Assembly (NCBI GenBank): GCA_963741205.1
Contig: CAVUHW010000020.1
Coordinates: 96,001 to 160,000 of the forward strand
Length of the DNA: 64,000 bases
Source of the DNA: Nitrospirota bacterium
Lineage (GTDB): Bacteria; Nitrospirota; UBA9217
Direction: 5' to 3'
Shown piece by piece: positions 8,746 through 58,147 of the stretch (its first letter is position 1; each line of letters begins with the position of its first letter). Under the pieces are notes generated by a model that saw only the letters and a list, made by a program, of their open reading frames with translations, made no database searches and was not told where the DNA came from. Position numbers and translations under genes: made by a program.

Positions 8746-8775
8746 AAAAAAAACTTATTTTAGCCATTACACCTA

Positions 8776-14785: not shown

Positions 14786-14815
14786 GGTCGCTATGCTCCA
14801 GGGGAATTTTTAATT

Positions 14816-14910
14816 GTCCTTCCGGCACGGTTCTAGCCGGAATCCAGCGACTTTGATTATCATGTTATTTGGCGAAACCTGGATTCCCGATAGATGCATT
14901 CGGGAATGAC
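14816..14910. repeat. Family A REP-like element
   Basis: gtccttccggc...gccggaatccag...ctggattcccga...tcgggaatgac. Confidence 0.8.
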
Positions 14911-14940
14911 AAAAAAGTGCGCTGTTGCGATACGGACTCG

Positions 14941-16250: not shown

Positions 16251-16272
16251 CTGAAAACGCCTTTCTCCAAAA

Positions 16273-16314
16273 CTCCTCCCCCTCGATGGGGGAGGAATTC
16301 AAAGGTGGGGGTGA
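16273..16314. repeat. CCCTCCCC-loop-GGGGGAGG...GGTGGGGGTGA hairpin element, family C
   Basis: ctcctccccctcgatgggggaggaattcaaaggtgggggtga; related to the in-frame insert in recG. Confidence 0.65.
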
Positions 16315-16469
16315 TGGTTGAGAGGCCGACAAACGTCGATGTTCATTTCCCGTGGTAAACGCAGTTCATAGACGATTCACGGAAGGAATATTATAATACG
16401 CAGGGGATTTTGAAACAAGGGATATATTTCGAAAAGAAAAGGGGGCGCAGGTAGCGCTGCGCGGAGGTG

Positions 16470-17273
16470 TTATCGGGCGACACTCAGCCGGACGACTTCT
16501 CCACGTTTCACGGACAGGGCGGTTCGGGCGTTCTGTTTGAACAGGAATATTTCAAGGGCACCGGAGCTGTTGAAAATCGCTCCCGGCTCGCCGGGGGTCG
16601 CCTCGGCATAGTATTTTTTGAAGCCCTTTATCTCCCTCCCGGCGATCGTAACGCTGGCGGAACCCGCATCGGTCCCTCCGGCGAGGAGCGGCTGAACGTC
16701 CTTGTACAGAATATCCGTAATGATATTCCCAAAGCGGTCGATGTGGATGACACGTCCTTCAATGCCGCCCGCCGTCACTTTCAGGACGGGCACATTGAGC
16801 TTCGCGAAGTCCGTAATTTCCTCTCCGAAATGGCCCGAGGGAATGCCCTTGGCAATCCATCCCGCGACGGGAGCGAAGATGTCCCTGCCGTGGAACGTGG
16901 GGCCCGGGTTGGGAAGAAAGTAATGGGTCGAGGTGATATGATGCACCCGCAGGCGCTCGGCATCGTTGTAGACGAGACTGAAGATCCCGTTGTCGGGACC
17001 GACGAAATAATAACTTTCCGTCACGGCAATAATCGGTCTCCTGCCGCTTCCGACGCCGGGATCGACGACGGCGAGGTGAATCGTCCCCTTCGGGAAATGA
17101 CTATAGGCGGACTTTAAAACATATGCGGCTTCCCATACGTCCTGCGGAGTGATTTCATTGGATATGTCGATGATTTGAGCTTGCGGATTGATCTTGAGGA
17201 TTACCCCTTTGACGCTTGCGGTAAATGAATCTTTCGCCCCGTAATCGGTTGTCAGCGTTATAATGACGGGCAT
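16470..17273 (-). CDS. SAM hydrolase / SAM-dependent halogenase family (DUF62)
   Basis: TLTTDYG, VVDPGVGSGRR, GPDNG, TFHGRDIFAP, IDRFGN. Confidence 0.92.
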   Translation of the reverse strand: MPVIITLTTDYGAKDSFTASVKGVILKINPQAQIIDISNEITPQDVWEAAYVLKSAYSHFPKGTIHLAVVDPGVGSGRRPIIAVTESYYFVGPDNGIFSLVYNDAERLRVHHITSTHYFLPNPGPTFHGRDIFAPVAGWIAKGIPSGHFGEEITDFAKLNVPVLKVTAGGIEGRVIHIDRFGNIITDILYKDVQPLLAGGTDAGSASVTIAGREIKGFKKYYAEATPGEPGAIFNSSGALEIFLFKQNARTALSVKRGEVVRLSVAR

Positions 17274-41224: not shown

Positions 41225-42454
41225 TTACTCGTACCGCAGAGCATCGATGGGATTTAAGAGCGACGCCTTGTAGGCGGGATAGAAGCCGAAGAAGATGCCG
41301 ATGAAACCCGAAAAGCCGAATGCCAGGAGGACAGAAAGGAACGACACGACGGTGGGCCAGCCCGACATGGAGGAAAGAATCATGGCGGTGGACACGCCGA
41401 CAATGATGCCGATGACGCCCCCGATCAGAGACAGGGTAAGCGCCTCGATGATGAACTGGAGCCGGATGTCCCAGGTCTTTGCGCCTATGGCCATGCGGAT
41501 TCCGATCTCCCGGGTGCGCTCGGTCACGGATACGAGCATGATGTTCATGATCCCGATCCCGCCGACCAGAAGCGATACCGACGCGATGGCCCCGAGCAGG
41601 AGGGTCATGACCTTCGTGGACTGCTCCGCCGCCTGCATGATCTGGGTCAGGTTACGCACCGTAAAATCGTTGTCCTGTTTCTGGCCGATGTGGTGCCGCT
41701 GCCTGAGCAGCTCGTTGATCTGTCTCTCGGCTGCCGGCAAGGTCCTCGGCGCTCTTTGCCTTGACCATGATGATCCGGACCATGCCGGGAAACTGGGTCC
41801 CGAAGAGTTTCTTCTGCGCCGTGGTCACGGGGATGAGAATCGTATCGTCCTGGTCCTGGCCCTGTGCGGACTGCCCTTTTCTCGCGAGCACGCCGATCAC
41901 GGTAAAGGGAACGTTCTTGATCCTGATCGTCTGGCCGACGGGATTCTGATCGCCGAAAAGATTGTCCACCACGGTCTGGCCCAGAAGGGCCACTTTGGTT
42001 GCGCTCTTCACATCCTGCGTAGTAAAAGGCCGGCCGGAAGTCAGATCCCAGTCCCGAACGGCCATGACGCCCGGCGACGTACCGACGACGCCCGTTGACC
42101 AGTTCAGATGGCCGTACACGACCTGGGCCACGCCATTGTGGATCGGCGCTACGTCGGATACCGCGGGGCATTCCTTCTGGATCGCCTCCGCATCGCCCAT
42201 GGAGAGCGTGGGTTGCGTTCCCGCCCCCATTCTCGCGCCGCCGGAGGTCGTGGCCCCGGGCAGAATAATCAGGAGGTTGCTTCCCATGGTCGAGATCTGT
42301 TCGGCGATCTTTTGGCTGGCCCCGGTGCCCACGGCGACCATGGCGATCACGGCGCCGACGCCGATGATGATGCCGAGCATGGTAAGGGCCGAACGCATCT
42401 TGTTCACCCGCAGGGCGCGAAAGGAATCTTGAAAGTTGAAGGGATGTTGATCAT
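41225..42454 (-). CDS. macB: MacB-type ABC permease (frameshifted)
   Basis: RSALTMLGIIIGV, GGIGIMNIMLVSVTERTREIGIR, NPIDALRYE. Confidence 0.92.
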
Positions 42455-43143
42455 TTTTTCACCGCTTCGTCGCTCACGATATGTCCGTCCAGGAACCGTA
42501 TGATCCGCTTGCTGAACGCCGCGATATCGGGCTCATGCGTCACCAGAATAACCGTGATATGGGATTCCCGGTTCAGCCTCACAAAAAGCTCCATGATCTC
42601 GACGCTCGTCTTGGTATCGAGATTGCCCGTGGGCTCGTCGGCAAGGATGATCGGCGCATCGTTCACGAGCGCCCGCGCGATCGCGACCCGCTGCTGCTGC
42701 CCGCCGGAGAGCTGGTTCGGGTGGTGGCCTTCCCTGCCCTCGAGCCCCACGCTCTTGAGGGCCGCCCGGGCGCGATCGCGCCGTTCCCGCGCGCGAAAGC
42801 CCGTTGTAGAGCATGGGAAGCTCCACGTTTTCGAGGGCCGATGTCCGGGACAGGAGATTGAATCCCTGGAACACGAAGCCGAGCTTTTTGTTCCTGATCT
42901 CGGCAAGCTCGTCCCGGGAAAGCGCGTGCCCGTATCGACACCGTCGAGCAGATAGTTGCCCTCGGTCGGCGTATCGAGGCACCCGAGCACGTTCATGAAC
43001 GTCGATTTACCCGACCCCGACTGCCCCATGATGGCCACGAACTCCCCTTTCTCGATGGTCGTCGAAATCCCGTCAAGGGCCCGGACCTCGATGTCGCCGA
43101 GCTGATACACCTTACTGAGCTTCCGTGCTTCGATGAGCGCCAT
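42451..43143 (-). CDS. MacB-type ABC ATP-binding subunit
   Basis: [26 protein letters not shown]; internal compensating frameshifts. Confidence 0.92.
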
Positions 43144-43144
43144 G

Positions 43145-44317
43145 CTAGAACATCCTCGGTCCCGACGGGGCCTGCTGCCTGCTGCCCTTCTTCAGCATCT
43201 CGACGATAAGCTGCTGGCCTTCCTTCAGGTCGCCGGACACGATCTCGGTATAGGCGCCGTCGCTGATGCCGGGGGTGATGTTGACCCGTTTCGGTTTTCC
43301 GTTCTCGAGCACCCAGACCGCGGGCCCTTTCTTTTCACCGGCGCTGGCTGCCGCGCCGGCGGGACGCTCGGAGAACCGGAACCGAAGCGCCGCATTCGTG
43401 ACCCTGAGACATCATTTCGCGTCATGATGATGATCGACACATTGGCGGTCATGCCGGGCATGAGTCTGAGGTCGCGGTTGTTCACCTGGATCACGACATC
43501 GTAGGTGACCACGTTCTGAACTGTGATGGGGGCCTGCCTGATCTGCCAGACCTTTCCCTTGAAAACGTGAATCAGGATAGGCATCCACGCTGAACTCCAC
43601 GTCCTGGCCGACCTTTACAACGCCGATGTCCGATTCGGCCACGTTCGTGTCGATCTGCATTTTCGTAAGGTCCTGGGCGATCGTAAACAGCGTAGGCGTC
43701 TGGAAACTCGCGGCAACCGTCTGGCCCACGTCCACGTTCCTTGAGATGACCACTCCGTCTACGGGAGAAACGATCTTCGTATAAGCGAGGTTCTGCTTCG
43801 CCAAATCAAGGGAGGCCTTTGCCTGTTCGATCTGCGCCTTGGCCAAATTCACCTGGGCCTTCGCGGACTCGTAATTCGTCTCGGCTGTATCCAAGTCGCT
43901 CCTCGGAACGAGGTTCTTGGAATACAGCTCTTTGTTCCGGTCGAAGGTCCTCTTCGCGTCCACGAGGGCGGTGTCGGACTTGTCCAGGTTGGCCTGCGCC
44001 GAGTGCAGGTTTGCCTCGGCCTGCTGCACCTGGGCCTCGAACGTGGAAGGATCGATCTGCGCGATGAGCTGCCCTTTCTTCACACGGGAGTTGAAATCGA
44101 CATACAGGGTCTTGATCGTACCCGATACCTGGGTGCCGACGAGCACAGTCGTTACCGCATTGACGGTCCCCGTCGCCGTCACGGCCGCCTGGATGTCGCC
44201 GCGCGTGACCGGTTCGGTCCGATAGGACGGCGTATCACCTTTGCATCCGGCAATGAGGACTGCGAGGATGGTTGCGATGATTACGCTTCGTTTAGTGGTC
44301 CCTGTACGTCTCGTCAT
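43145..44317 (-). CDS. macA: MacA-type membrane fusion protein (frameshifted)
   Basis: VGTQVSG, VDFNSRVKKGQ, SPVDGVV, GQTVAASFQTP. Confidence 0.9.
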
Positions 44318-44450
44318 AATAACGTCCTTTGTCTGCTTTTAATTTCACGAACCCGTGCAAGAAACACCGACGCCCCATGGCCAATACTGAATAAAAGCAA
44401 TAATTAAAATTCGACGCAGCTCGAAAAATCAATAACGACGCAACCATGAA

Positions 44451-47400
44451 TTATTTTCCCGGATCTGGAGCTGCCTCCCTGGTCCTGAAGATCGCGAGCT
44501 TGCCGAAACGCCGCTGGAACGTGTCCAGGTACGTGTAGATGACCGGCGTGATGTACAGGGTCAAAAGCTGCGAAAACACAAGGCCGCCGACCACGGCGAG
44601 CCCGAGGGGCCTGCGCGCCTCTGCGCCCGCGCCCAGCCCCAGCGCGATCGGGAGCGTGCCCATGAGGGCGGCCATCGTGGTCATCATGATGGGACGGAAC
44701 CTGACGAGAGCGCCCTCAAAGATCGCCTCCGCCGGGCCTTTCCCTTCCTTTCGCTCCGCTTCGAGCGCGAAATCGATCATCATGATGGCGTTCTTTTTCA
44801 CGATGCCGATGAGCATGATGACGCCCACGTACCCGTAGATGTTCAGCTCCTTGCCGAAGAGCATAAGGGTCAGAAGCGCTCCGACGCCGGCGGCGGGCAG
44901 TCCGGAGAGGATCGTGAGAGGATGGATAAAGCTCTCGTACAGGATGCCCAGCACGATGTAGATGACCAGGACCGCCATGATCAAGAGGAGAAACAGGTTC
45001 TGCGTGGACGACTGGAACGCCTGCGCGGTCCCCTGAAAACTCGTCGTGACCGAGGCCGGCAGCGTGTCCCGGGCGGCCTTGTCCACGAGGGAAACAGCCT
45101 CGCTCAAGGAAACGCCCGGCCTCAGGTTGAAGGAGAGGGTCACGGCCGGGAGCTGGCCCAGGTGATTGACGAGGAGCGGTCCCGTGCCCACCGTCGGCTT
45201 GGTGACCACATTGAGCGGCACCAGTTTGCCGGAGGATGAACGCACGTACAGCATGGTCAAGCGAGGCCGGATCCGTCTGATACTCCGGCAGGAGTTCCAT
45301 GATGACCTGGTACTGGTTGGTCGGAGCGAGGATCGTGGATATCTGCGGCGCGCTGTAGGCCGTGCTCAAGGCGATTTCGATCTGTTCCGCCGTGACGCCG
45401 AGCGCGGACGCCTTGTCGCGGTCTATCTCGAGGTTCACCTGCGGATTTTTTATCTGCAGGTCGCTGTTCACGTCCTGGAGCTGCGGGATCGTCCGAAGCT
45501 TTGCTTCGAGGACAGGGGCGACGTCTGTAGAGCTCGTCCGTGTCCGGGCTCTGGAGCGTGTACTGGTACTGGCTCTTGGTGAGCGTGCCGCCGATTCTGG
45601 ATCGGCGGCAGGTTCTGCAGGAAAATCCTGATGCCGATGACGCCTGCCGTCTTTTTCCGGAGCGACTGGATGATCTCGTCAGCGGAAATTTTCCGCTCGG
45701 AACGGGGTTTCAGCCTCATGAAGATCCGGCCGGTGTTTCCGGCGGCGTTCGGACCGCCGGCGCCGATCGCTCGACATGAACGCCTCGACATTCGGGTCCT
45801 GGGCGATGATGTCGACGAGCTGCTGCTGGTGCTTCGCCATGTCGGGAAAGGATATCCCCTGCTGCGCCTCGGTAAAGGCGAATATCTGGCCCGTGTCTTC
45901 CGTCGGAAGAAACCCCTTCGGCATGATGATGAACAGGAATATCGTCGCGACGAAGAGCGCCACGGTCACGGCCAGGGTCACCCTGCGATGCTTGAGCACC
46001 CAGGTGAGGCTCGTCTTGTACCCGTTCCGCATGCCGTCGAAGAACCGCTCCAGGGCCATGTAGAGCCGGCCGTGCCGCTCCTCGACCGTGAGGACGCAGA
46101 AACCGGCTCGCCAGCATGGGCGTGAGTGTCAAGGACACGACGCCGGAGACGAGAATGGACTACGCTGATCACGACGGCGAATTCGTGGAGGAGTCGGCCG
46201 AGGATGCCTCCCATGAAGAGCACGGGGATGAAGACCGCGACCAGGGAGACGGTCATGGACAGGATGGTAAAGCCGATCTCCTTCGACCCGTAAAGCGCAG
46301 CCTGAAGCACGGGCTCTCCGTGCTCCATGTGGCGGACGATGTTCTCGAGCATCACGATGGCGTCGTCGACCACAAACCCCACGGCGAGGATCATCGCCAT
46401 GAGCGAAAGGTTGTCAACGCTGTATCCAAGCACGTACATGGCCGTGAACGTGCCGATGATCGACATGGGGAGCGCCAGGCTCGGGATGATCGTTGCCGAG
46501 AGGTTGCGCAGAAACAGGAAGATGACCATGACCACGAGCACAATGGCCAGGAGCAGCGTAAGCTTGACATCATCTGACTGATTCCCGTATGGACACGGAC
46601 CGGTCAAGAGAACATCGAGATTCACCGACGCCGGCAATTGTGCGCGGAAGACGGGCAGGAGCGCCTTGATGGAGTTCACCACCTCGACCGTGTTCGTGCC
46701 GGGCTGGCGCTGGATCGCCAATATGATCGCACGAGGGTTTGACTTTGCGGTAACGTACCAGCTTGCGATCTTGTCGTTTTCCACACTGTCGACCACCATG
46801 CCGAGTTCCCGGAGCCGCACGGGGTTGCCGCTGCGGTAGGCTACGATAAGAGGGCGATATGCGGCCGCGTCCATGAGCTGGCCGCTTGCCTCGATGGTGA
46901 ACGACTTGGTAGCCCCCTGAAGGGTCCCGGTCGGCAGGTTCACGTTCGCCTCGGGAAACCGCAATCGCCACTTCATCGATCCCTATCCCCCGCGAGGCCA
47001 GGGCCCGGGGATCGAGCCGGGCGCGGACGGCGTACTTCTGCGAGCCGAACACCTGCACCTGTGCCACGCCGCTGATCATGGAAATGCGCTGGGCCATCGC
47101 GGTCTCCGCGTATTCATCGACCGCGGAGAGCGGGAGCGTGGGAGAACTGAGCGCGACGATAGATGATCGGCTGGTCAGCGGGATTGACCTTCTGGTAGCT
47201 GGGCGGCGTGGGCATGGACGGCGGGAGCAGTTTCGCGGACTTGGCGATCATGGCGGACACGTCCTCGGCCGCCGCGTCGATGTTCCTGCTCAGGTTGAAC
47301 TGGAGCGTGATCTGCGCGACGCCTTGTCCGCTCACGGAGGTCATGTTGTCGAGTCCCGCGATAGTCGAGAACTGACGCTCCAGCGGCGTAGCCACGGCAG

Positions 47401-47582
47401 AGGCCATGGTCTCCGGGCTCGCCCCGGGAAGACTGGCGTTCACCAGCACGGTCGGGAAATCCACGTTCGGGAGGTCGCTGACCGGCAGCATCCGGTATGC
47501 CATGATGCCGAAGAGCAGAATTGCGGACATGACCAAGGTCGTCATGACCGGCCTGTTTTATGAAGGGTTCCGAGATATGCAT
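44451..47582 (-). CDS. RND efflux permease, MdtB/MdtC-like (multiple frameshifts)
   Basis: LPNVDFPT, PGASPETMA, GFVVDDAIVMLENI, GIVKKNAIMMID, RFRPIMMTT. Confidence 0.93.
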
Positions 47583-47587
47583 AGATT

Positions 47588-47722
47588 ACTTCAAGCTCCA
47601 AATCTCAGGCGACAAAACCCGACAAATACCAAGCATCGATGACCAAGATGTCAAAGCAATCGGAATTTATTATTTGGAACTGGCGCTTATTTGGTATTTG
47701 TCATCTGTGATTTAGTATTTCC
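47588..47722. repeat. Degenerate short-unit inverted repeat tract
   Basis: ctccaaatctcagg..caaataccaag ... tttggaac..tttggtatttg..gtgatttagtattt; resembles 855-1000. Confidence 0.5.
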
Positions 47723-48858
47723 CTCGCCGGGTTTCGGATTTCCCCCGTTTTCCCCTTTCACTTCAACCGTGCCCCGGGAATCAAATTCAGTTGTCCGTCA
47801 ACAACCACTTTTTCTCCCGCCGATACCCCCTGGCTGACCACGGCGAGGTCGCCGAACGAACGCGAGACGGTCACCTGACGCGATTCAACCGTGAAGTCCG
47901 GTTTTACCACGAAGACATACTGCCCCTGCTGGCCTGTCTGAAGCGCCGCGGACGGCATGACCACGGCGTTCCGCTGCGTGGTGAGCATAAGAAGCACGTT
48001 CACAAACTGGCCGGGCCAGAGCCGTTTGTCCCTGTTCTCGAAGGTGCCCTTGAGCTGAATCGTCCCGGTCGAAGTATCCACGGAATTATTGATGAACGTA
48101 AGCACTCCCGTGGCCGGGCGTTTTTCATCGCCCGGGATAACCGCCTCCACCTGCAAGGATCCCTCTGCATTGTATTTCTTGATGTCCGCGAGGTTCTGTT
48201 CAGGCACGGAAAAAGTAATATATATGGGGACGACCTTATTGATGGTCACCATCACGAGGTCATTCGCTTTAATAATATTGCCCTTGTTGACCAGGACGCT
48301 CCCGACGCGGCCGTCGATGGGAGACTTAATCGTGCAGAAGGAATATTGAAGTTTTAAGCCCTCCACATTAGCCTTGTCCGCAAGGACCGCGGCCGCCAGG
48401 GCATCGGCGTTTGCGTGGAACTGGTCGTATTGATCTTTGGAAACGTAGTCTTTTTGAGACCAGAATTGCATATCTCTTGGCTTGCTCTTCCGCGTTTATT
48501 GCCTGGGCCACGTCCCGCGCGAGCTGGGCCTCAGCCTGCTTGATGGCCATCTCGTAGGGACGAGGATCTATTTGAAAGAGCAGGTCGCCCTGCTTTACAT
48601 CCTGGCCTTCCCTGAAATGAACATCGATCACCTCCCCGCCAACCTGGGCCTTCACCGATACGGTGTTGAATGCCTCGACATTGCCGATGGCATTGATCTG
48701 GACCGGGACGTTCATCTGAATCACGTCGCCCGTTTTTACCGGCACTACTGCGCTGCGGAGTCTGCTTCGCCTTGCCGTCGGAACAGCCGCCGATGAACGT
48801 CGAATATCAGGAATATAACGATGAATGTCCTTTTACCGGCCAATGATCCGTATTTCAT
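47712..48858 (-). CDS. RND membrane fusion protein, MdtA-like (frameshifted)
   Basis: LFQIDPRPY, SPIDGRVG, VDTSTGTI, LWPGQFV. Confidence 0.9.
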
Positions 48859-48974
48859 ATCACTCCTGCTGCCTTTCTTTTTCTTGATATCTTCCGCGCG
48901 CATTCATGATGCTCCCTTGCCTTCATGTCCGCATCGACATGCGGCACCGGTCCTCCATCGGACACCGTTCCCCA

Positions 48975-50370
48975 TTACCGCGCTCCCATCGCCTTCTCGA
49001 TGGTTGCCTGGGCGATCTTGTAATTGGACAGGGCGGTGGTATAGTTCGCCTCGGCCGTAACATAGGTGGCGAATGCATCGGAGACCTCAATCGGGCTTCC
49101 CACGCCAGCCGCGTATCTGCCGTTCGAAAGATCCAGGTTCTCTTTGGACTGCTCAGCCGCGAGTTTAGCCGTTGAAATGCTGGCCCACGCTGCCTGCCAG
49201 ATTCAGATAGGCCTGTCGGACGTCGAACATGATCTGCTGTCGTAAAGACTCTTCATTAGCTTTCAGAATGTAAAGATTTGCTTTTGCCTCGGCCACTTGA
49301 TGGCTGGTCAGGAATCCGTTGAACAACGGCACGGTCAGGAGCACACCAGCGCTCCAACTGCGTTCCAGCGATGAGGCGGACTCTCCGGTCCAGTTATAGT
49401 TTGCGTTTCCCGACAGGACCGGGTAATAATCCGACCTTGCAAGACTGATATTCATCTCTGCTGCCTGCCTTTTTGCGGTGATAGATTTGTAGTCAGGCCT
49501 GTTTTCGAGGGCGCGCTGTGCAGCTTCTTCCACGGTTATCGTATATTTCTCGAAGGTCAGTTGATCCTCTATGGTGTAAGTACCCAACGGCGCATCAGGT
49601 ACCCCCATGGCATTTTTCAGGGTAACCCACGCGATTTTAAAGGCATTCTCGGCATTGATGAGGCTTAGCTGCGCATTGCTCAGGTCCACTTCCGCCTTGA
49701 TGACGTCGATTCTCGCCTTCGTTCCGACATCGTAAAAGCCCTGCGCCTGGTCAAGGTGCAGTTGAAACTGTTTTATGACGTCCGCCGCGACGTCGCGGTT
49801 CCTCCTGGCCTGGAGGACGCCGTAGTAGGCCTGCTTTACGCTCAGGATGACCGTATCCTGCGTCGAATCCAGATCCGAGCGGGAAGCCTCGAGATTATAC
49901 TTCGAAACATCGACCTGTGAGGAAGTCTTTCCGAAGTCGAGGATTTTCTGGTTGAGCGTCACACTGCCTGAATACTGATCGAATGACTGGGAAGTACTGG
50001 AAGTTGCCGGCGCGATCGGGAAGGGATTGATCCTGCTATAGCCCGCCGAGGCGCTGAGCTGCGGGTAATAGCTGGAGCGCGCTTCACCCACCCTGTTCGA
50101 GTTGACATCAACCCCGTATCGTGCGGCGAGAATGACCGGGTTCTTCTGGAGCGCGATTTCGATGCACCGGTTGAGCGTCAATTTCTCGACCGCTGTGACG
50201 GCTCCGCCTCCGGAGCCATCATTTTTTTCGGCCTGTCCCGGCTCGGGAGTTGATACGTGAGTCTGCGCCGGCTCTTCCGCGTAGAGGTGATGAAGTGGAG
50301 CGGCCCCGAGCAACAGGATGGACAAGGCTGCCGCCTGTCCCCATTTTTTCGATCGATCAATTGCCTGCAT
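48975..50370 (-). CDS. TolC-family outer membrane factor (frameshift near 49190)
   Basis: Signal peptide, ALQKNP, YYPQL, YYPVL, VPLFNG; ends IEKAMGAR. Confidence 0.92.
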
Positions 50371-50402
50371 ACCGGTCTCCCTTGAACTGCGTTTACTGTC
50401 TG

Positions 50403-50993
50403 CTATTTAATAGTGCCATGTATAAAGATGCTAATCACTTCCTGAACATACTTTTCCATGTTTTGTTTTTTCATACCGCCCGTCCGCATGATCTCTTCCT
50501 GTCTGAAATAGGAAATGAAAATCGCTAAATAGACGCGCGCGACTATTTCCGGAGAGATGTCTTTTCTTAGATTTCCCCGCTCCTGCAATGTTCTGATAAA
50601 GTTAGCCAGTATTGCCCGGACTTCTTCAGTGAACTTATTATAGACTTCCCTGATTTTCACGGGATAACTGGTCACCTCCTGGTACATGATCTTGATCATG
50701 GCCTTTCGTTCTTTCAAGGTCAGAAGAAGCCGCGTAGCAATCAATGTCAGCGCTTCTTCGATGGGAAGCCCTTCCAACTCCGGCAGGAGTTCCTTCAGCT
50801 TCGGTAAAAAAGTATAAGTCTTCAAGACTTCTTCAAATAATAACTCCTTGGACCCGAAGTTCCTGAAAAGAGTGATCTCGGTTACACCGGCCTCCTTGGC
50901 TATTTCTCTCGTAGTGGTGCCGAGATACCCTTTCTCGGAGATGAGCTTAAGGGTCGCCTGCAACAGTAATTCTTTGGTATTCGAAGTTCTCAT
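50403..50993 (-). CDS. TetR/AcrR family repressor
   Basis: TTTREIAKEAGVTEITLFRNFGSKE helix-turn-helix. Confidence 0.95.
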   Translation of the reverse strand: MRTSNTKELLLQATLKLISEKGYLGTTTREIAKEAGVTEITLFRNFGSKELLFEEVLKTYTFLPKLKELLPELEGLPIEEALTLIATRLLLTLKERKAMIKIMYQEVTSYPVKIREVYNKFTEEVRAILANFIRTLQERGNLRKDISPEIVARVYLAIFISYFRQEEIMRTGGMKKQNMEKYVQEVISIFIHGTIK

Positions 50994-51004
50994 CGTTTTC
51001 AGAT

Positions 51005-51048
51005 TGTAAGTATGTACTTACATTACAGGAAGCGCTGAGGCATGTCAA
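51005..51048 (-). promoter_or_regulatory. Efflux operon promoter with overlapping TetR operator
   Basis: Minus strand TTGACA-17-TAATGT; palindrome TGTAAGTA-TG-TACTTACA (51005-51022) covers the -10 and start site. Confidence 0.8.
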
Positions 51049-51160
51049 GAGATTTCACCGCCGATGGTGTATTTTCCCCTTGCGCGGGCCGGCCGCTTGT
51101 GGTATGGTAGCGCCTGCATTTCACCTAATATAATTTACTCACATAACGGAGGATATCACT

Positions 51161-51355
51161 GTGGCAGGCACATGTCAGATATGCGGCAAAGGCAAGCTCA
51201 GCGGCAACCAGGTTAGCCATTCGAACAACAAGACCAAAAAGATGTCAAAACCGAACCTGCAGTTCGTGAAGGCCGTAGGACCCCACGGTTCTCATATACG
51301 CATGCACGTATGCACCCGCTGCATACGCTCGGGCAAGGTAAAAAAAGTCAGCTGA
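51161..51355 (+). CDS. rpmB: 50S ribosomal protein L28 (zinc-binding type)
   Basis: [31 protein letters not shown]; GGAGG SD. Confidence 0.96.
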
Positions 51356-51380
51356 CGGTCTCATCAGGAACCATCATTCC

Positions 51381-51413
51381 ATCCCCTGCCGTTTCAAACG
51401 GCGGGGATTTTTT
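51381..51413 (+). terminator. Intrinsic terminator after rpmB
   Basis: ATCCCCTGCCGTTT-C-AAACGGCGGGGATTTTTT. Confidence 0.85.
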
Positions 51414-51614
51414 CCCTCCATCGTCATCCTATCGTGAAACATCAAGGCCCGGTCCAATTTCAGTTCGAAGAATATTCTAAAAGGCGTCGACGGAATGAAA
51501 ACTTACGGTCAACAAAACAGACGTGCGGTTTTCTGGTCCTCGCGACAGAACGAAAGTCCTCAACAATACACTAAATTACAGAATAAGAAGTAATGTAAAA
51601 TTAGAATTTGAAGT

Positions 51615-51643
51615 TGACACGATGGAACGAGTGGACTATCATT
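51615..51643 (+). promoter_or_regulatory. sigma70 promoter of beta-propeller gene (about 180-nt leader)
   Basis: TTGACA-17 bp-TATCAT. Confidence 0.7.
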
Positions 51644-51830
51644 ATTTTGGTCAAACAATAACTGATTTAACATGTCATCGCGCTGATTCTAATTCCCCTG
51701 CTTTGCAGAGAAGGAGGTGGACCGCAATATCAGCATTAGTAACAATTAGTGAGAGTGACCCATCAGGTCAAGGAACGACGCATCATCCGGGGACGTTGTG
51801 TTTTTCAACTTTAAACATTTGGGAGGAGCT

Positions 51831-52977
51831 ATGAGTTTTCTGAAAAAAAGTGTCGTAGTCGGTTTGATTGTTCTGGGTATTGTCGCCCTGCTCGTGGGCG
51901 TATCCGTCCGCGCAACGGTTGATGCTGCGGATGTAGCTGTTATCAACGTGAAGGAAGTGCCTGCGGCAAAGCTGCCGACGTTCGACGCAACGGCATACAT
52001 CGCCGGCCACGGCGGCCACCTGGCGATCCTTGACATGAGGACGATGAAGTCTCCGACTGACATTGAAAAAGACCGGATCGTTCTCACGGAGGCCGGCTCC
52101 GAGATGGAAGGCAAGGTTGCCGGGATAAGCTTCGAGGAAACCAAGAAGGCGGGCGGTTCTCACGGCCAGGAACTCCTCACGGAAAAGGGACAGAAGGTTC
52201 TCGTTGCCGGCACCCTGTCCGGCAATGTCTATAAAGTCGAGCTCGACAAGAACGGCAGAGCGGCGAAAAAGGAAGGTCCGTTCAAGGTCGGCGAGAAGTT
52301 CTGCGGCGCCATCGCCGGTCCGGACGGCAATATTTACTTTGAAGACATGACGAACGGCAGCGTCTATGTTTGGGATGCCAAGACGCTGAAGACCGTGGAA
52401 AAAATGCCCGTCGGCATGGCCGTCTGCGGCATTCAGTGGACCAAGAACAACAAGAAGGCTTACATAACCGATATGCCGACCGGCATCGTCTATGTCTACG
52501 ACTGGTCAGGCAAGGAAAAGAAGAAAATCGCCGAGATCAAGGACCCGACGATGACCTTCATCCATCAGGCAAGGATGACGAATGATGGCAAGCAGCTCTG
52601 GGTGAGCTCGCCGAATGAATTTGAACTCGATCCCGAGTCCAGCAAGGAAGGCCATGGGCCGCTTCGCGGAGGGAGCCATCCGAGCCAGGTCGTCATCATC
52701 GACACTGCCACGGACAAGATCGTGAAACGCCTCGTTTTGCCCGACTACGGTCAGCCCTCACGATTTTGCGTTCAGCAAGGACGGGAAATATGCATTCTTG
52801 TCCTCCCGTTCTTACGGTTCGGATGACAGCACCCTGAACATCCTGGACATGAAGACCGACAATCTCATCGGCAAGGTCTCTCTTTGCGCCAGCTGCCACA
52901 AACCGGCGGGTGTTGAAGTCAAGATTGACAAGGGCTCTCCGCTGCTCTGCGGCATTACCTTAGATTGGCATAAGTAG
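51831..52977 (+). CDS. Secreted YncE/YVTN-like beta-propeller with His/Cys blade motifs and C-terminal CxxCH (frameshift near 52750)
   Basis: Signal peptide; blade repeats (VYVWDAKTLKTV, VVIIDTATDKIV); reconstructed tail VSPHDFAFSKDGKY...SLCASCHK...LLCGITLDWHK. Confidence 0.8.
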
Positions 52978-53004
52978 TCCGCATTCACTACATTCGATTT
53001 CCTT

Positions 53005-53040
53005 AAGAGGGCAGGGTTCTCCCCTGCCCTCTCTTGTTTC
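53005..53040 (+). terminator. Hairpin/terminator after propeller gene
   Basis: AGAGGGCAGGG-TTCTC-CCCTGCCCTCT followed by a T-rich tail. Confidence 0.7.
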
Positions 53041-53102
53041 TTTACTTGCCCGCATCATTTCTGGTATAATCCATCATCCATTAAGGATTTATCGCGAAAC
53101 GT

Positions 53103-54299
53103 ATGAACATCCCCTTTGTGGCCCTCAGAAATCTCAAAAGAAAATTGACGCGGACGTGGCTTTTATTCGCCATCGTCGCGGTTGTATCGTGCACGCTGTT
53201 CTCCGCAACGCTCTTCCTGAAAAGCATCAACAACGCGCTCAGAATCGGCACCTACCGTCTGGGCGCCGACATCCTGGTCGTCCCCGAAGGCGCGGAAGCC
53301 AAGGCAAAATCGGCGCTGCTCTCCGGCGAACCGACCCATTTCCTGATGGACCGCAAGGTTCTCGACCTCGTCAAAGCGGTAAGCGGCGTCAAGAATGCGA
53401 CCCCGCAGCTTTTCATCAAGCCAACCAGCTTCACCTGCTGCTTCAACGTCGATGTTTTTCTCGTCGCCTTCGATCCGGACTCCGACTTTACGGTAAAGCC
53501 CTGGCTCGAAAAACATTTGAACCGGCGGCTCGGCGTCAACGAGATCATCACCGGCCGCACGGTCCCGGTCATCGCGGGAGACCGTATACCTTTTTTCGGC
53601 ACGACGTTCACCATCGCGGGGACCATGGAACCGACGGGAATGGACTTTTTCGACCGCGCCGTTTTCATGAGTCTGGACGCAGCGTATCGGATGGCGGAGG
53701 ATTCCAAGACCAGGGCGATCCAGCCTCTTGACATAGGCAAAGACCAGATATCGACCGTGCTGGTCCAGGTCAACGATGACATTACCCCCGACCGGGTCGC
53801 CATCCGCATCGAACACGATATCGCCGGGGTAAAGGCCCTCGTCTCGGACACCGTCATCAGCACGGTGCGGAAGCAGCTCGCGGGCCTGATCAAGGCGATC
53901 CTGGCCATCAGCGTCATCCTGTGGTTCATCGTCCTCCTCATCATGGCATTCGCTTTTTATATGATCGTGAATGAACGTCGCCGGGAAATCGGCCTTCTGC
54001 GCGCGATGGGCGCGAACAGGGGCCATATCGCCTCCATCTTCCTGGTCGAAGCGAGCCTGCTTTCGGCCGCGGGCGGCGTGGCCGGCGTCGCCCTCGGATA
54101 CGGGCTGTTGTTCAGTTTCAAGAACCTCATGCTCCACTATCTCAAACTGCCTTATCTTTTCCCCAGCACGCCGGAACTGATGATCCTGACGATCGGCGCC
54201 CTCATCATTTCCCTGGCTACCGGCCTCGTCGCTGCCTTGCTGCCGTCGCTTGCCGTTTTGACCGTTGAACCCTACGATGCCATACGGAGCGCCGAATGA
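53103..54299 (+). CDS. FtsX/MacB-like ABC permease with periplasmic Cys-Cys
   Basis: RLGADILVVP, FTCCF, NERRREIGLLRAMGA, EPYDAIR. Confidence 0.9.
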   Translation: MNIPFVALRNLKRKLTRTWLLFAIVAVVSCTLFSATLFLKSINNALRIGTYRLGADILVVPEGAEAKAKSALLSGEPTHFLMDRKVLDLVKAVSGVKNATPQLFIKPTSFTCCFNVDVFLVAFDPDSDFTVKPWLEKHLNRRLGVNEIITGRTVPVIAGDRIPFFGTTFTIAGTMEPTGMDFFDRAVFMSLDAAYRMAEDSKTRAIQPLDIGKDQISTVLVQVNDDITPDRVAIRIEHDIAGVKALVSDTVISTVRKQLAGLIKAILAISVILWFIVLLIMAFAFYMIVNERRREIGLLRAMGANRGHIASIFLVEASLLSAAGGVAGVALGYGLLFSFKNLMLHYLKLPYLFPSTPELMILTIGALIISLATGLVAALLPSLAVLTVEPYDAIRSAE

Positions 54300-54889
54300 A
54301 TTTTCTTCTGACGGTCGTTATGACGACGCTGTTGCTTCTTTCATGCACCCAGAAAAAAGAGGAGCCGCCCGCCCAGCAGACGGTTTCCCCAGAGCGGATC
54401 CAGTTGGACGAGCTTAAAGAGCGAACCGTAAAAAATCCGAAGGATGTGGACGCCTGGAGCCGTCTGGCGAGCATCTACGAGAGCGCCCAGATGTACAAGG
54501 AGGCCGTGAACGCCCTGAAGAATGTTATCGAACTCGATCCCAAGCGGGGCTACACCTACCTGAGGCTGGGGAGCGCCTACAACAGACTCGCGCAATATGA
54601 GGACGCGATAAAAATTTTACGCGCCGGGGAAAAATATTCTCCGCAGAATCCGGTCCTGTATAATAATCTGGGAGTGACGTACGGCATGGTCGGGAAAACA
54701 AAGGAAGAAATCGCCGCCCTCGAAAAGGCCATCTCCCTGCGACCTCACTACTCAACGGCCCGCATAAACCTCGGCCTGGTATTCCTGAAACAGGGAAAGC
54801 GCCAGGAAGCACTGAACCAATATAACGAAATCAAGAAGTACGACGAGGGCGGGGCTGAAACCCTTAAAAAGGAAATCGACAAAAGGTAG
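54296..54889 (+). CDS. TPR lipoprotein
   Basis: Lipobox LLLSC; TPR repeats (AWSRLA, YLRLGSAY, YNNLG, INLG). Confidence 0.85.
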   Translation: MNFLLTVVMTTLLLLSCTQKKEEPPAQQTVSPERIQLDELKERTVKNPKDVDAWSRLASIYESAQMYKEAVNALKNVIELDPKRGYTYLRLGSAYNRLAQYEDAIKILRAGEKYSPQNPVLYNNLGVTYGMVGKTKEEIAALEKAISLRPHYSTARINLGLVFLKQGKRQEALNQYNEIKKYDEGGAETLKKEIDKR

Positions 54890-54899
54890 GGACCGCTTT

Positions 54900-55304
54900 A
54901 TGAAATTGAGAAGCTTGTTCTTCATTTACGCGATGTTCTGTTTCGCCCTGATGATTTCCACGGCTTCTGCGGCTGACATCAACTGCGCCCAGTGCGGAAT
55001 GACCGTGGACCTGGACTCGAAGTTCACCTCAAGGATCGTGGTCAAGGACACGACCCTGTACTTCTGCGATATCGGCGACTTTTTCACCTACCTGAACCGG
55101 AAAAAACCGGCTGCGGTCAAAACCGAGGTCAGGGATTACCCGAGCGGTGAATGGATCGATGCGAAAGCCGCCAGCTACGTCCATTCCGAAAAGAAATTCA
55201 AGACGCCCATGGGTTGGGGCATTGCGGCATTCAGGGAAAAGTCACGGGCAGCGGAATTCGGGGATGTTATGGCGTTCGATGCCGCGGCGAAGAAGGTGCA
55301 CTGA
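54900..55304 (+). CDS. nosL: NosL-family copper chaperone
   Basis: Signal peptide, CAQCGM, YFCDIGD, WIDAKAASYV, TPMGWGIAAF. Confidence 0.88.
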   Translation: MKLRSLFFIYAMFCFALMISTASAADINCAQCGMTVDLDSKFTSRIVVKDTTLYFCDIGDFFTYLNRKKPAAVKTEVRDYPSGEWIDAKAASYVHSEKKFKTPMGWGIAAFREKSRAAEFGDVMAFDAAAKKVH

Positions 55305-55373
55305 GCCGACGGTCATCCGTGCCAGGGAATTCGTCCGGGGCACAGGGGTATTTTTGGAGAGAGACACGTTCTC

Positions 55374-55778
55374 ATGAAAAAGCTGGTCGCCTTCTCGTCG
55401 CTTGCCTGCGGTCTACTCTTGATCCTCATTCCGCGTTTCATCCTGCCCACGTGTGAATACGAAGGTTACCCACGCATGCATTGTTCGGACGCGGCCCATG
55501 CGGAATTTATTGCCGGCGCGCTGCTCATGCTGATGGGGTGCGGGACGCTCTTCCTGAAAACGGAAACGACGACCATGCTCGCCTCTCTGGCTGCCGGTTT
55601 GCTTTTTGTCGTCGCCTACTGGATTCCCGATATGACCGGGTATTGTCAAAGCCCGCGCATGCCGTGTAACTACGGGACGGTCCCGGGGGTGCGCTTCGTC
55701 TCGGTTACCGGCTTCATGATAATGGCCGTCGCACTGGCCGGCCTCGCAAGATCCCGCGGAAGGAAAAAGAACGCATGA
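55374..55778 (+). CDS. DUF4418-like membrane protein
   Basis: Four hydrophobic segments with two periplasmic C-x(n)-MxC motifs (CEYEGYPRMHC, YCQSPRMPC). Confidence 0.75.
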   Translation: MKKLVAFSSLACGLLLILIPRFILPTCEYEGYPRMHCSDAAHAEFIAGALLMLMGCGTLFLKTETTTMLASLAAGLLFVVAYWIPDMTGYCQSPRMPCNYGTVPGVRFVSVTGFMIMAVALAGLARSRGRKKNA

Positions 55779-56437
55779 TCGAACTTAAGGGACTATCGAA
55801 GACATACACCATATCGGGAAAAACCATCAAGGCGGTGCAAAGCGTCGATTTGACCGTTGCGCAGGGAGAATTTGTATCGATCGTCGGCCACTCGGGAAGC
55901 GGCAAGAGCACTTTCCTGAGCCTCATCGGCGGCATTGCGCGGCCCGACACCGGGACGGTCACCGTGGATGGTGTGAACATCTGGGGATACGACGACAAAA
56001 CCCTGTCGAGGCTCCGGAACGAAAAGTACGGCTTCGTCTACCAGTTCGCCAGCCTCATTCCGACGCTGACCGCGTGCGAAAACGTCCTTCTGCCCACCGT
56101 GTTCGGCGGAAAGAAGACACGTGCGGACGCGGAAAACCTGCTCCAGCTTGTTGGACTCGGCGACAAGATGGGTCGCTACCCCGCCGAACTTTCGGGCGGC
56201 GAACAGCAGCGCGTTGCCATCGCCCGCGCCTTTATCAACGATCCCGAAATCATCCTTGCCGACGAACCCACCGGAGACCTTGATGAGGAGACGGAAGCGG
56301 AAATCATGGCATTCTTCGAGAAGATCAACCGGGAGAAAAACGTTACGATGGTCATGGTGACCCACAGCTCGGAGCTCGCCCTCCGCGCCCCGTCCCGGCT
56401 CAGGATGAAGCAGGGAGTCCTTGAAAAGCTGAACTGA
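55775..56437 (+). CDS. ABC ATP-binding protein (LolD/MacB type)
   Basis: GHSGSGKS, LSGGEQQR, LADEPTGDLD. Confidence 0.93.
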   Translation: MIELKGLSKTYTISGKTIKAVQSVDLTVAQGEFVSIVGHSGSGKSTFLSLIGGIARPDTGTVTVDGVNIWGYDDKTLSRLRNEKYGFVYQFASLIPTLTACENVLLPTVFGGKKTRADAENLLQLVGLGDKMGRYPAELSGGEQQRVAIARAFINDPEIILADEPTGDLDEETEAEIMAFFEKINREKNVTMVMVTHSSELALRAPSRLRMKQGVLEKLN

Positions 56438-56485: not shown

Positions 56486-56516
56486 AAAAACGGCGGCCTT
56501 TCCGGCCGCCGTTTTT
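56486..56516. terminator. Bidirectional intrinsic terminator
   Basis: AAAAACGGCGGCC-TTTCC-GGCCGCCGTTTTT between convergent operons. Confidence 0.88.
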
Positions 56517-56551: not shown

Positions 56552-57258
56552 CTACTTTTTCTTTTTATCCCCGTAGAGATAGTCATATTCCGCCGGATGA
56601 TGATGTTTGAGCTGATCGATCGACATCTTGCCGGTGAGCCACATCCAGTTCATGGGGAACACCTCGGACCGGAGGTGCTCGTTATAGAAGTGGAAGATGA
56701 GGATGAATACGATGGCTAGCAGCGCCTCGTCGCTGTGCATGGCGAACAGGACATCCCAGATCCACTGGACCGTCGACATCGGGAAGAGCGCTGATACCGT
56801 CACCGGGAAGGCGAGGAAAAAACCGGACGCTCCGATGATGAACATGCCCCAATACACCGCCCAGTAGTCGAACTTCTGCATGTAGTTGAACTTTCCGAAG
56901 TACGGCTTCTCTTTCCGAAGGCCGAAAAAGTACATGAAAATTATGAACCACGTCCACAACGTCCTTGGGCATGGGAACGAGGCTCAGCCGGAACCCGCCC
57001 TTGCGCGCCTGGTTGATGAGATAGAACTGGTGGTAGATGAAGTCGAGCAGCATGGTAATGCCCGCGATGCGGTGAATGAGCCCCGCGCTCTTTGCGCCGC
57101 CCCAGAAACGGATCCAGGCGCTGGCCGGGATCCTGGTAGGCATACTTGAGCCCCCAGCCCGTGAACGACAGGAGCAGAAAAGTCGTAAACATGATGACGT
57201 GCTGAATCCTCGCGGAGAGGTCGAATCTCTCGATTTCCTTCGGGATAGTATTATTCAT
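56552..57258 (-). CDS. Di-heme cytochrome b (FdnI/HydC-like; 2 frameshifts)
   Basis: ERFDLSARIQH, LIHRIAG, IYH, KFNYMQKFDYWAVYWG, MHSDEALLA, FHFYNEH. Confidence 0.85.
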
Positions 57259-58147
57259 GCTTGTCCCCCTTTCTGAAAAGCCGGTCGCGAATGTCCGCGA
57301 TGATATCTAAAAGAACATGGATGCAGATAAATGCGAACACGCTCATGGTGAGAACGATAAGCGCAATCTCGGTAAAGTGAGCGATCGGATGGAGCGGTTT
57401 ATGCGTGATTGCAGCGACGAACTTGGCCGTCGCTCCGCTGTGGCATTTTCCGCAGGTCGCTATCTTATTCTCGCCGACGACCGGCGAGGCAGGGTCCTTG
57501 TCGCTCTTGATATCATGAGCGCCGTGGCAGTTCACGCAGGACGGAGCGTTGGTGTGGCCGACCTTCAGCTTCCTTCCGTGGAAGCTCTCAAGATAGCGCT
57601 CCATGACGAGCGGCGAGAACCCGTATTTTTCGGCCATGTGCTTCTCTTCATGGCAGGTCCCGCAGGTCTTGACGACATTGAAATGATTGACTGCCGACTC
57701 CTTGCTCGTCTTCGGCTGGATGTAATGAGGCGAACCGTGACAGCTCGTACAGACCGGGCCATCGGTTGATTTTTTCACGATGACGTTCTTTCCATGCACG
57801 CTGCCCTTGTAGGCCTCATAGAGGTCCGGATGGCATTGGGCGCATGCCGCCTGCGCTATGGGGTCGATTTTGCTCTTCGAAGAAATTAACGCCGCGAGTT
57901 CCTGCGTGGCCTTATCGGCCTTGCCCGAAAGGTCCTGGTGCTGCGCCCCTTTCAAGGTCATGTGGCATTGGACGCAATCAAACGCGCCGTGGACCGACTT
58001 GGTGTACTTCTCCTGGTTCACATTGACGGACCCTTCCATCGATCCGTGGCATCCGAGACAAGTCGCCGCGTCGGGCGCTGCGCCTGCTGCAGGGACCAGA
58101 ACAAGCGTGAGCAACAACAACAGTGCTGTGTTAAGCCATTTCCTCAT
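57251..58147 (-). CDS. Periplasmic heptaheme cytochrome c with C-terminal membrane anchor
   Basis: Signal peptide; 7 CxxCH (CLGCH, CVQCH, CAQCH, CTSCH, CGTCH, CVNCH, CGKCH); C-terminal TM containing a His. Confidence 0.92.
   Translation of the reverse strand: MRKWLNTALLLLLTLVLVPAAGAAPDAATCLGCHGSMEGSVNVNQEKYTKSVHGAFDCVQCHMTLKGAQHQDLSGKADKATQELAALISSKSKIDPIAQAACAQCHPDLYEAYKGSVHGKNVIVKKSTDGPVCTSCHGSPHYIQPKTSKESAVNHFNVVKTCGTCHEEKHMAEKYGFSPLVMERYLESFHGRKLKVGHTNAPSCVNCHGAHDIKSDKDPASPVVGENKIATCGKCHSGATAKFVAAITHKPLHPIAHFTEIALIVLTMSVFAFICIHVLLDIIADIRDRLFRKGDKHE

Follow-up and report, generated by a model that had tools for sequence, protein, structure and literature searches.

Genes of the locus

The window analysed here is a 64,000-nucleotide (nt) stretch of a Nitrospirota bacterium (GTDB lineage Bacteria; Nitrospirota; UBA9217; GenBank assembly GCA_963741205.1, contig CAVUHW010000020.1, positions 96,001 to 160,000 of the forward strand), and the subject of this report is an operon at positions 51,615 to 56,437 of that window. 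In it, a gene for a predicted exported beta-propeller protein is followed by genes for an ATP-binding cassette (ABC) permease, a tetratricopeptide repeat (TPR) lipoprotein, a NosL-family copper chaperone, a DUF4418 membrane protein and an ABC ATPase. A first-pass annotation had taken these genes for a new metalloenzyme system without nosZ; its observations are confirmed by the analysis below and its interpretation is partly supported.

Relatives were sought in 185,579 species genomes, of which 127 carry a relative of the propeller, and the best 80 loci (cited by number with the prefix L) were analysed. Seventy-two of these loci are labelled Nitrospirota and eight are labelled Deltaproteobacteria, delta proteobacterium, Proteobacteria or Desulfobulbia. 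A word-indexed protein search returned 545 propeller homologues, mostly 360-380 residues long and either unnamed or called 'YncE family protein' from Nitrospirota, and of 1.84 billion cluster representatives scanned with a hidden Markov model (HMM) only 25 reached E ≤ 1e-30, so the family is narrow but internally very conserved. Residue conservation was scored by alignment in 54 database homologues, in 60 genome loci and in remote relatives at 28-41% identity.

The propeller gene (51831..52977, + strand), delimited from a pair of open reading frames (ORFs) and the homologue alignment, encodes 381 residues as a read-through. In the deposited sequence it is divided between ORFs at 51798-52826 (342 residues) and, in the next frame, 52798-52977 (59 residues); its likely start is the ATG at 51831, with a ribosome-binding site (GGGAGGAG) upstream at 51821-51828. 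Three-frame translation follows frame 0 up to VLPDYGQPS and resumes in frame +1 with SPHDFAFSKDGKY, then CASCH and a C-terminal LLCGITLDWHK before the stop codon. Together with the homologue alignment this places a +1 frameshift at 52740..52758 (+ strand), where CCC runs at 52740-42 and 52754-56 are the candidate indel sites, and reading through at either run gives a protein of homologue length. All 17 full-length homologues (360-380 residues, 66-85% identical) are uninterrupted across this point in the alignment; the window sequence is thus truly interrupted, and the break falls within 52740-52758, which bears out the single frameshift of the first-pass annotation. Both halves of the gene are 73-85% identical to intact homologues, and the alignment reveals no further damage. 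In the window at least five further gene families also appear as adjacent partial ORFs (a ROK kinase, a MiaB-like radical SAM enzyme, AcrB, HlyD and a cytochrome b; 911-2037, 14944-16298, 44719-48832 and 56552-57258), the pattern of an indel-rich assembly, and fragmentation of like kind occurs in some related long-contig assemblies (L009, L075). The frameshift is thus probably an assembly indel and not biology or the mark of a pseudogene.

The gene behind the propeller (53103..54299; this and the next four genes are on the + strand) encodes an FtsX/MacB-type ABC permease that matches the Pfam families FtsX (PF02687, 69.5 bits, E 3.4e-19) and MacB_PCD (PF12704, 32 bits, E 1.9e-7), both over cutoff. 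A vicinal pair, Cys112-Cys113 (53436-53441), lies inside its MacB periplasmic core domain and is present in 65/65 sequences and throughout the 60-locus set; several Met residues are conserved as well. All 120 permease relatives among the matches listed are Nitrospirota proteins at least 82% identical to it. The permease stop codon is overlapped by 4 nt by the start of the TPR lipoprotein gene (54296..54889), whose lipobox Cys17 is kept in 62/62 sequences, and the DUF4418 stop is overlapped by 4 nt by the start of the ATPase gene. The latter (55775..56437) encodes a LolD/FtsE/MacB-like ABC ATPase (ABC_tran, 116 bits, E 2.1e-33). With an FtsX domain, a MacB core domain and a cognate ATPase, all over Pfam cutoffs, the permease and ATPase belong to the MacB/FtsX (type VII) class of ABC systems. 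Their scores on the equivalog models of named members are well below cutoff (LolCE 40.2 vs 362 bits; MacB 28.9 vs 966; FtsX 28-34 vs 225-255; LolD 232 vs 307.75).

Between the TPR and ATPase genes stand the NosL gene (54900..55304; PF05573, 44.1 bits, cutoff 24) and the DUF4418 gene (55374..55778; PF14387, 64.1 bits, cutoff 27). In the section of PMC8457098 that describes the crystal structure of Shewanella NosL, the Zn/Cu ligands are Cys59, Cys62, Met64, Cys88, Asp92 and Met145; by spacing these correspond to C29, C32, M34, C56, D60 and M104 of the window NosL. In an alignment of 20 sequences (19 loci and the window), C29, C32, M34, C56 and M104 are 95-100% conserved and D60 at least 90%. The window NosL has a signal peptide, with a leader ending ASA/AD, and lacks a lipobox: its sole N-terminal Cys (C14) is kept in 5% of the 20 sequences. 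DUF4418 is a four-helix membrane protein with two loops, C27-x7-M-x-C37 and C91-x4-M-x-C98, in which the four Cys and M96 are invariant in 48/48 sequences; charge distribution suggests that both loops face outward. An AlphaFold2 model is a four-helix bundle with a mean predicted local distance difference test score (pLDDT) of 83.6. Its identity as a DsbB/VKOR-like oxidoreductase was considered and rejected: Foldseek found nothing in the PDB at E ≤ 0.001, and human VKOR ranked tenth (E 0.32, template modelling score 0.35). In the literature searched, DUF4418 is mentioned only as a gene adjoining an ABC permease gene in Bifidobacterium. From its Cys/Met loops we would guess that it is a membrane donor or acceptor of Cu(I). 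All five genes agree with the first-pass description of them, including the periplasmic Cys-Cys of the permease.

Conservation and predicted structure of the propeller

Residues are numbered on the window read-through, in which H60/H63/H111/C158/C199/H245/H310/C352/C355/H356/C373 correspond to H59/H62/H110/C157/C198/H244/H308/C349/C352/H353/C370 in homologue numbering. They stand in the motifs GHGGH (H60 and H63; 52005..52019), SHG (H111; 52161-63), FCG (C158; 52302-04), VCG (C199; 52425-27), IHQ (H245; 52563-65), PHD (H310; 52759-61), CASCH (C352, C355 and H356; 52885..52899) and LCG (C373; 52948..52950), all on the + strand. All eleven are invariant in 54/54 database homologues and 60/60 genome loci, more than chance would give; the first-pass annotation had pointed out these positions, the GHGGH and the C-terminal CASCH. 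Across the 60 loci the propellers are 64-86% identical, and 58/60 mature proteins have exactly five Cys, all at conserved columns. At 28-41% identity C198, H244 and the CxxCH remain invariant and H62, C157, H308 and C370 nearly so (homologue numbering); the CxxCH is found in 13/13 remote-relative alignment rows, in one of them as CxxxCH. As an invariant CxxCH at residues 352-356 of a protein predicted to be exported, the motif has the properties expected of a c-type cytochrome, and it is a predicted attachment site for haem c. One relative (P0126) carries a cytochrome c domain (CAGCH) inserted in its first blade, which we take as a hint of redox use.

Residues 1-32 of the propeller resemble a signal peptide with the cleavage motif VDA/AD. 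Export by Sec is inferred from this N-terminal helix, a conserved A-x-A motif and lipoboxes in remote relatives.

An AlphaFold2 model was made of an 84%-identical homologue with 54 aligned sequences (mean pLDDT 83.4). It has five four-strand blades beginning at residues 109, 156, 197, 246 and 307 (homologue numbering, here and in the next two sentences), and a strand at 372-376 seems to complete one more blade together with strands from the N-terminus. H110, C157, C198, H244, H308 and C370 each fall no more than two residues from where a blade-opening strand begins, which upholds the first-pass observation of His or Cys at equivalent positions of successive blades; C370 stands at the start of the C-terminal closing strand. 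The CxxCH is modelled in a helix (350-356) that follows the last complete blade, in a loop toward the closing strand and on the same face as the six residues, and GHGGH occupies a turn between strands 2 and 3 of the blade closed by the C-terminal strand. In propeller folds the first strand of each blade is the innermost. Since the six Cys/His residues open successive blades, they should, on this model, encircle the central channel at one of its mouths; five of the six ring codons fall within 52161..52761 and C373 supplies the sixth position. In generic YVTN propellers, going by the family's alignment to 1l0q, the ring positions hold variable residues.

Sequence and fold searches of the PDB returned generic propellers only, with the archaeal YVTN protein 1l0q best by both profile (E 1.6e-12) and Foldseek (E 2.6e-12). 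Of the Pfam matches, all partial, the one to PF02239 (cytochrome d1 propeller) alone exceeds its cutoff (3/3 full-length homologues, 28-40 bits, cutoff 25.5), and that match spans the C-terminal blades (profile positions 228-361 of 368). The YVTN repeat model TIGR02276 (cutoff 27.85 bits) scored 25.6 for the window protein and 19.7, 25.4, 38.6 and 31.3 for others, two of the five being over the cutoff. A search of the ESM Atlas returned only unnamed Nitrospirota clusters of the propeller family itself.

Several further features of the family were recorded. Residues 84-108 (about 52080-52154) include an invariant acidic, Met-containing stretch, EAGSEMEGK, with a pLDDT below 50; judged from the model, it might serve as a mobile lid or as a loop that binds a partner. 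In P0127 the propeller is a single domain of a 2470-residue protein and the last ring Cys is missing. Four of nine remote relatives (P0122, P0123, P0131 and P0142) have a short tail in which Gly-Cys stands last or almost last, and three others start with a lipobox.

Synteny and copper chaperones

Operon counts were taken over the 66 of 80 loci that have at least 3.8 kb downstream of the propeller. A permease, a TPR protein and an ATPase follow it in 59/66 by script, and L068, in which the permease ORF starts before the script's cut, is the sixtieth; counted singly, the TPR gene and the ATPase are each present at 60/66 loci. NosL is found in 17/66 operons, DUF4418 in 16/66 and both together in 14/66. 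The linkage of the propeller to nosL, DUF4418 and ABC genes described in the first-pass annotation thus holds for the ABC core and is not fixed for NosL and DUF4418. Against a core found in 59-60 of 66, these frequencies define the kit as a propeller with three core genes (permease, TPR and ATPase) and an optional NosL/DUF4418 pair. In L019, directly behind the first operon, there is a second module (13936-17045) with a divergent propeller that keeps GHGGH, CxxCH and LCG, followed by a Cys-Cys permease and an ATPase without a TPR gene. Because the permease Cys-Cys is invariant and this divergent second module retains it, the pairing of propeller and Cys-Cys permease appears, from sequence, to be old and specific.

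When all ORFs were searched, NosL-family ORFs were found in 24/80 loci, including divergent upstream pairs in L015, L033 and L045, and YtkA-like ORFs in 7/80; Pfam confirmed 7/7 of the YtkA ORFs and 7/7 of the extra NosL ORFs. Altogether there are 35 NosL/YtkA ORFs in 30/80 loci, all of them within 6 kb of the propeller (884 kb of sequence) and none in the 395 kb further out, which supports a link between the propeller and copper-chaperone genes far beyond what position alone would give.

The YtkA-like gene of L051 lies between permease and TPR genes, the slot taken by NosL/DUF4418 in other loci. In L031, L039, L040 and L053 a divergent YtkA-like gene stands beside an Rrf2 regulator, which is about 0.1-1.5 kb upstream of the propeller in the same orientation and is nearest to the CymR/IscR models, at scores below their cutoffs; in three of the four (L039, L040 and L053) the YtkA gene also adjoins a ResA/TlpA-like thiol reductase. 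A passage of PMC12362106 assigns YtkA paralogues to metal loading of cytochrome c oxidase in Bacillus, and one of PMC13068155 describes a Geobacillus nos cluster with a YtkA-domain protein in place of NosL. In other genomes the in-operon NosL is thus replaced by a YtkA-like protein or by a NosL encoded outside the operon.

Expression signals and neighbouring genes

A promoter-like site, TTGACA-17-TATCAT (51614..51642, + strand; 11/12 consensus matches), lies about 190 nt 5' of the propeller start, and its -35 block with about 20 nt 5' of the site is kept in 11/12 aligned upstream regions of close relatives. Between propeller and permease there are a terminator-like hairpin (53006..53032, + strand) of 11 pairs (8 G-C) with a T-rich tail and, after it, a second promoter-like site (53041..53070, + strand), both consensus matches only. 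The long leader (about 190 nt) and the terminator had been noted in the first-pass annotation, as possible signs of high expression, and are present. With a hairpin and a second promoter-like site between them, the propeller may be made in excess of the downstream genes. A strong hairpin of 13 pairs (8 G-C) with A and T runs on either side (56486..56516, - strand) is a predicted terminator, placed where the operon and the convergent cytochrome genes described below both end.

The leader (51648-51833) contains a conserved box, AAGGAGGTG, about 130 nt 5' of the start, which is shared with the upstream regions of L002, L003, L008, L010, L011, L014 and L018. RNAalifold pairs a T/C-rich stretch of the leader with the true ribosome-binding site (16 predicted pairs, 5 with compensatory changes; the covariation term, -1.03, is weak). 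The leader is possibly a translational control element. An Rfam scan of 50900-53200 for riboswitches gave nothing near a gathering score.

Two convergent genes on the - strand follow the operon, one for a cytochrome b (56552-57258), broken by frameshifts in the window, and one for a cytochrome c with seven CxxCH (57251-58147). The two are present and intact in 16/80 loci, all of the window's nearest clade, and are putative and possible electron donors to the propeller. On the other side, a divergent TetR-family regulator gene (50403..50993, - strand) heads an RND/OEP efflux operon (42454-50370). This cluster (42454-50993, - strand), with OEP, HlyD-type adaptors, AcrB fragments and an ABC ATPase, is conserved beside the propeller in no clade but the nearest, where the regulator adjoins it in 15 loci, and is probably an unrelated neighbour. 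It is separated from the propeller promoter by a small ORF with CxxC...CxxC (51161-51355), which we take to resemble ribosomal protein L28 (rpmB), and by a terminator-like hairpin after it (51384-51406). At 7237-9477 (- strand), 44 kb from the operon, are genes for an ABC-2 permease (PF12679), an ABC ATPase and a prepilin-type N-methylation protein, with no NosD nearby.

Relation to known systems

No earlier account of the propeller family or of this gene arrangement was found in the literature searched. The closest functional parallel is nitrous oxide (N2O) reductase. As described in a section of PMC8457098, NosZ has seven His ligands of CuZ in the hub of its propeller and a C-terminal CuA cupredoxin domain; a passage of PMC13685413 presents NosDFY as an ABC complex that moves Cu(I), driven by ATP, from NosL to N2O reductase. 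Like that system, the present one combines a periplasmic propeller with predicted hub metal ligands, a NosL whose ligand set is the same, and an ABC complex; in NosDFY, by the same passage, the ATP cycle serves the periplasm and not transport. Unlike NosZ, the propeller is unrelated to it by sequence, its ring reads H, C, C, H, H, C instead of seven His, and it ends 25 residues past a CxxCH, with no cupredoxin match where NosZ has its CuA domain. The NosZ models TIGR04244 and TIGR04246 gave no match at E ≤ 0.1 in 4/4 full-length homologues or in the window fragments, and neither nosZ nor a cupredoxin was found among the window ORFs scanned. The first-pass statement that there is no nosZ here therefore stands, and by the models the propeller is neither NosZ nor L-NosZ. 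Its proposal of a NosL/NosDFY-like maturation kit stands for NosL, which keeps the six Zn/Cu ligands, and fails for the ABC genes, which are FtsX/MacB-type and not NosFY homologues: the permease is not a NosY, and no NosD was found at E ≤ 1e-5 in scans of the window, nor in the operon. NosL here is also without a lipid anchor and optional.

A second comparison is with clade III nosZ clusters, whose gene content we know from a passage of one 2026 review (PMC13685413): they are without nosDFYL, and their genes include those for b-type cytochromes and for a MacB-type transporter that may have an analogous function. Clade III NosZ is reported from Nitrospirota and Desulfobacterota, and its sequences are reported to be detected by NosZ HMMs. 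Clade III L-NosZ and the present family share a lactonase/YVTN-like propeller and a home in anaerobic Nitrospirota and Desulfobacterota; a MacB-type ABC system and a b-type cytochrome, gene types that the review passage names for clade III, are present here too. In contrast to L-NosZ, the present propellers are about 100 residues shorter and have no NosZ-model match. Membership of L-NosZ (NF052460, cutoff 700 bits) was rejected at 21.8 bits for the window fragment and 38.7-54.3 bits for four homologues. That model is nevertheless the top NCBIfam match for 4/4 full-length members tested; since six of 21 other propeller proteins scanned, all YVTN-rich, score 89-134 bits on it, the match reflects repeat content.

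With YVTN/YncE-type propellers (1l0q, 3vgz) the protein shares the fold, by best PDB match, and apparently the repeat; their ring positions are variable, and they lack both a CxxCH and a comparable ABC operon of their own. The PF02239 proteins, cytochrome cd1 nitrite reductase and NirN/NirF, resemble it in architecture by joining a c-type haem electron entry to a propeller active site, both of which are predictions here; they differ in that the match is partial, that they have eight blades, against an apparent six or seven here, and a cytochrome c domain instead of a short C-terminal haem loop, and that no haem d1 genes were seen here. The transporter shares FtsX and MacB core domains and a separate LolD/FtsE-like ATPase with MacB/LolCDE/FtsEX, from which it is set apart by the sub-equivalog scores, the invariant Cys-Cys, the lack of a MacA-type adaptor and its partners, a propeller and a TPR lipoprotein. 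AztD is the propeller zinc metallochaperone of the AztABC transporter, likewise a periplasmic propeller (with metal binding only predicted in our case) in an ABC transporter operon; unlike it, the present family has no AztD-model match, and AztABC is an importer with a solute-binding protein and not MacB-type.

Interpretation

Our favoured reading, to which we give a probability of roughly 45%, is that the propeller is an exported redox enzyme with haem c at its CxxCH and copper at its Cys/His ring, and that the genes behind it are its partners and assembly machinery. By analogy, we rate the locus as a Nos-like system of propeller, ABC complex and chaperone built from different parts. As the ingredients of NosDFY and clade III systems surround a different propeller here, the following relay is proposed. 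The apo-propeller would be exported by Sec and then receive covalent haem c at the CxxCH. Cu(I) would be donated by NosL, soluble in this genome, or by YtkA, with DUF4418, as a small Cys/Met-rich membrane protein, perhaps feeding NosL. On the analogy of NosL-NosDFY-NosZ, the chaperone would hand copper on to the periplasmic domain of the MacB-type permease, whose Cys-Cys would load it at the Cys/His ring of the apo-propeller; ATP hydrolysis by the ATPase in the cytoplasm would move that periplasmic domain, and the TPR lipoprotein would act as a scaffold. Electrons could come from the convergent cytochrome b and the seven-CxxCH cytochrome c.

A broader proposal, more doubtful than the reading just given, is that these proteins are a new class of periplasmic haem-copper, possibly copper-sulfur, propeller enzyme, matured by an ATP-driven MacB-type relay that is not homologous to NosDFY. 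In anaerobic Nitrospirota and Desulfobacterota such an enzyme would act as terminal oxidoreductase on an oxide of nitrogen or sulfur, and the same relay may mature clade III N2O reductases.

Several observations weigh against the enzyme reading. NosL is absent from 49/66 operons, and 50/80 loci have no known copper chaperone in the DNA covered. Six of 66 loci are orphan propellers without permease, TPR protein or ATPase, among uninformative neighbours; judged by genome labels, five of the six are additional to a full operon in the genome they come from. H59 and H110 (window H60 and H111) vary in remote relatives. The convergence of the ring residues depends on strand register in a model; the CxxCH segment is modelled less confidently (block pLDDT 77 and 62), and haem attachment is a prediction. 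In Pfam, NCBIfam and the PDB no copper-enzyme family or solved structure was matched beyond generic propellers, and in the window the deposited reading frame of the propeller is interrupted. The MacB class, familiar mainly from systems of export and extraction, would suit a role in transport just as well.

That last point leads to the main rival, which we think unlikely: the locus would handle or export copper or another soft metal, the MacB-type ABC system and the TPR lipoprotein removing or relocating periplasmic Cu(I), with the propeller as a chaperone, an AztD-like hand-off or storage protein and no enzyme. Membership of the MacB/FtsX family, the invariant periplasmic Cys-Cys and several conserved Met of the permease, and the copper chaperones in 30/80 loci all suit this account, as do metal- or stress-type regulators nearby (ArsR/SmtB in L020 and the four Rrf2 regulators) and the efflux operon that adjoins in the window. 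Electron transfer is suggested instead by the invariant CxxCH and by the cytochrome c domain inserted in one relative; the operon has no gene for a membrane-fusion adaptor or an outer-membrane channel; the propeller family lacks an AztD-model match; and its 64-86% identity over 60 loci is above what we would expect of a chaperone.

Still less probable is a copper-free haem/thiol enzyme of sulfur metabolism, in which the ring Cys would be haem ligands or persulfide carriers, the substrates thiosulfate, polysulfide or sulfite, and the permease Cys-Cys a participant in thiol or sulfur transfer. His/Cys-ligated sulfur cytochromes are the model for such ring Cys. The labels of the hosts (Thermodesulfovibrionales, Ca. 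Sulfobium, Dissulfurispiraceae and Desulfobacterota metagenome-assembled genomes) speak for this account, together with five invariant Cys alongside a CxxCH, the ResA/TlpA-like reductase near some loci and an Rrf2 regulator, nearest to CymR/IscR models, directly upstream in four. It leaves the recurring NosL/YtkA genes and the complete Zn/Cu site of NosL unexplained, however, and the flanks sampled showed no genes of sulfur metabolism.

We consider it very improbable that the propeller is a divergent N2O reductase, a shortened relative of clade III L-NosZ with haem c in place of CuA. The top rank of the L-NosZ model among NCBIfam matches (39-54 bits in 4/4 full-length members) would fit, and so would the likeness of a MacB-type ABC system and a b-type cytochrome to the one-sentence description of clade III clusters and the report of clade III from the same phyla. 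Those scores are nonetheless far under the cutoff and are exceeded by six YVTN-rich proteins among the 21 other propellers scanned, the NosZ models that reportedly detect clade III sequences give no match, and a Cys3His3 ring and a missing cupredoxin domain stand in place of seven His and CuA.

The least credible account, that the gene is dead here and its Cys and His purely structural (disulfides or structural zinc) in a binding propeller, has in its favour the broken deposited frame, a database entry that is a truncated 331-residue product (P0001) and fold searches that yield generic propellers only, yet the splitting of at least five other families in the same 64 kb and of genes in L009 and L075 points to indel errors, the two halves are otherwise undamaged and close to intact homologues, and an odd Cys count with a CxxCH is ill-suited to a pure disulfide function.

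Few periplasmic copper enzymes are built on propellers, N2O reductase being one; they bear on the cycling of greenhouse gases and sulfur, and the assembly of their metal sites is understood only in part. The present family is common in metagenomes from anoxic habitats (545 protein clusters and 127 species-level genomes) and extremely conserved. If it is a haem-copper enzyme, it would be a new catalyst for anaerobic Nitrospirota; and if the Cys-Cys MacB-type ABC system is a copper relay, it would offer a testable answer to how clade III N2O reductases that lack NosDFYL are matured.

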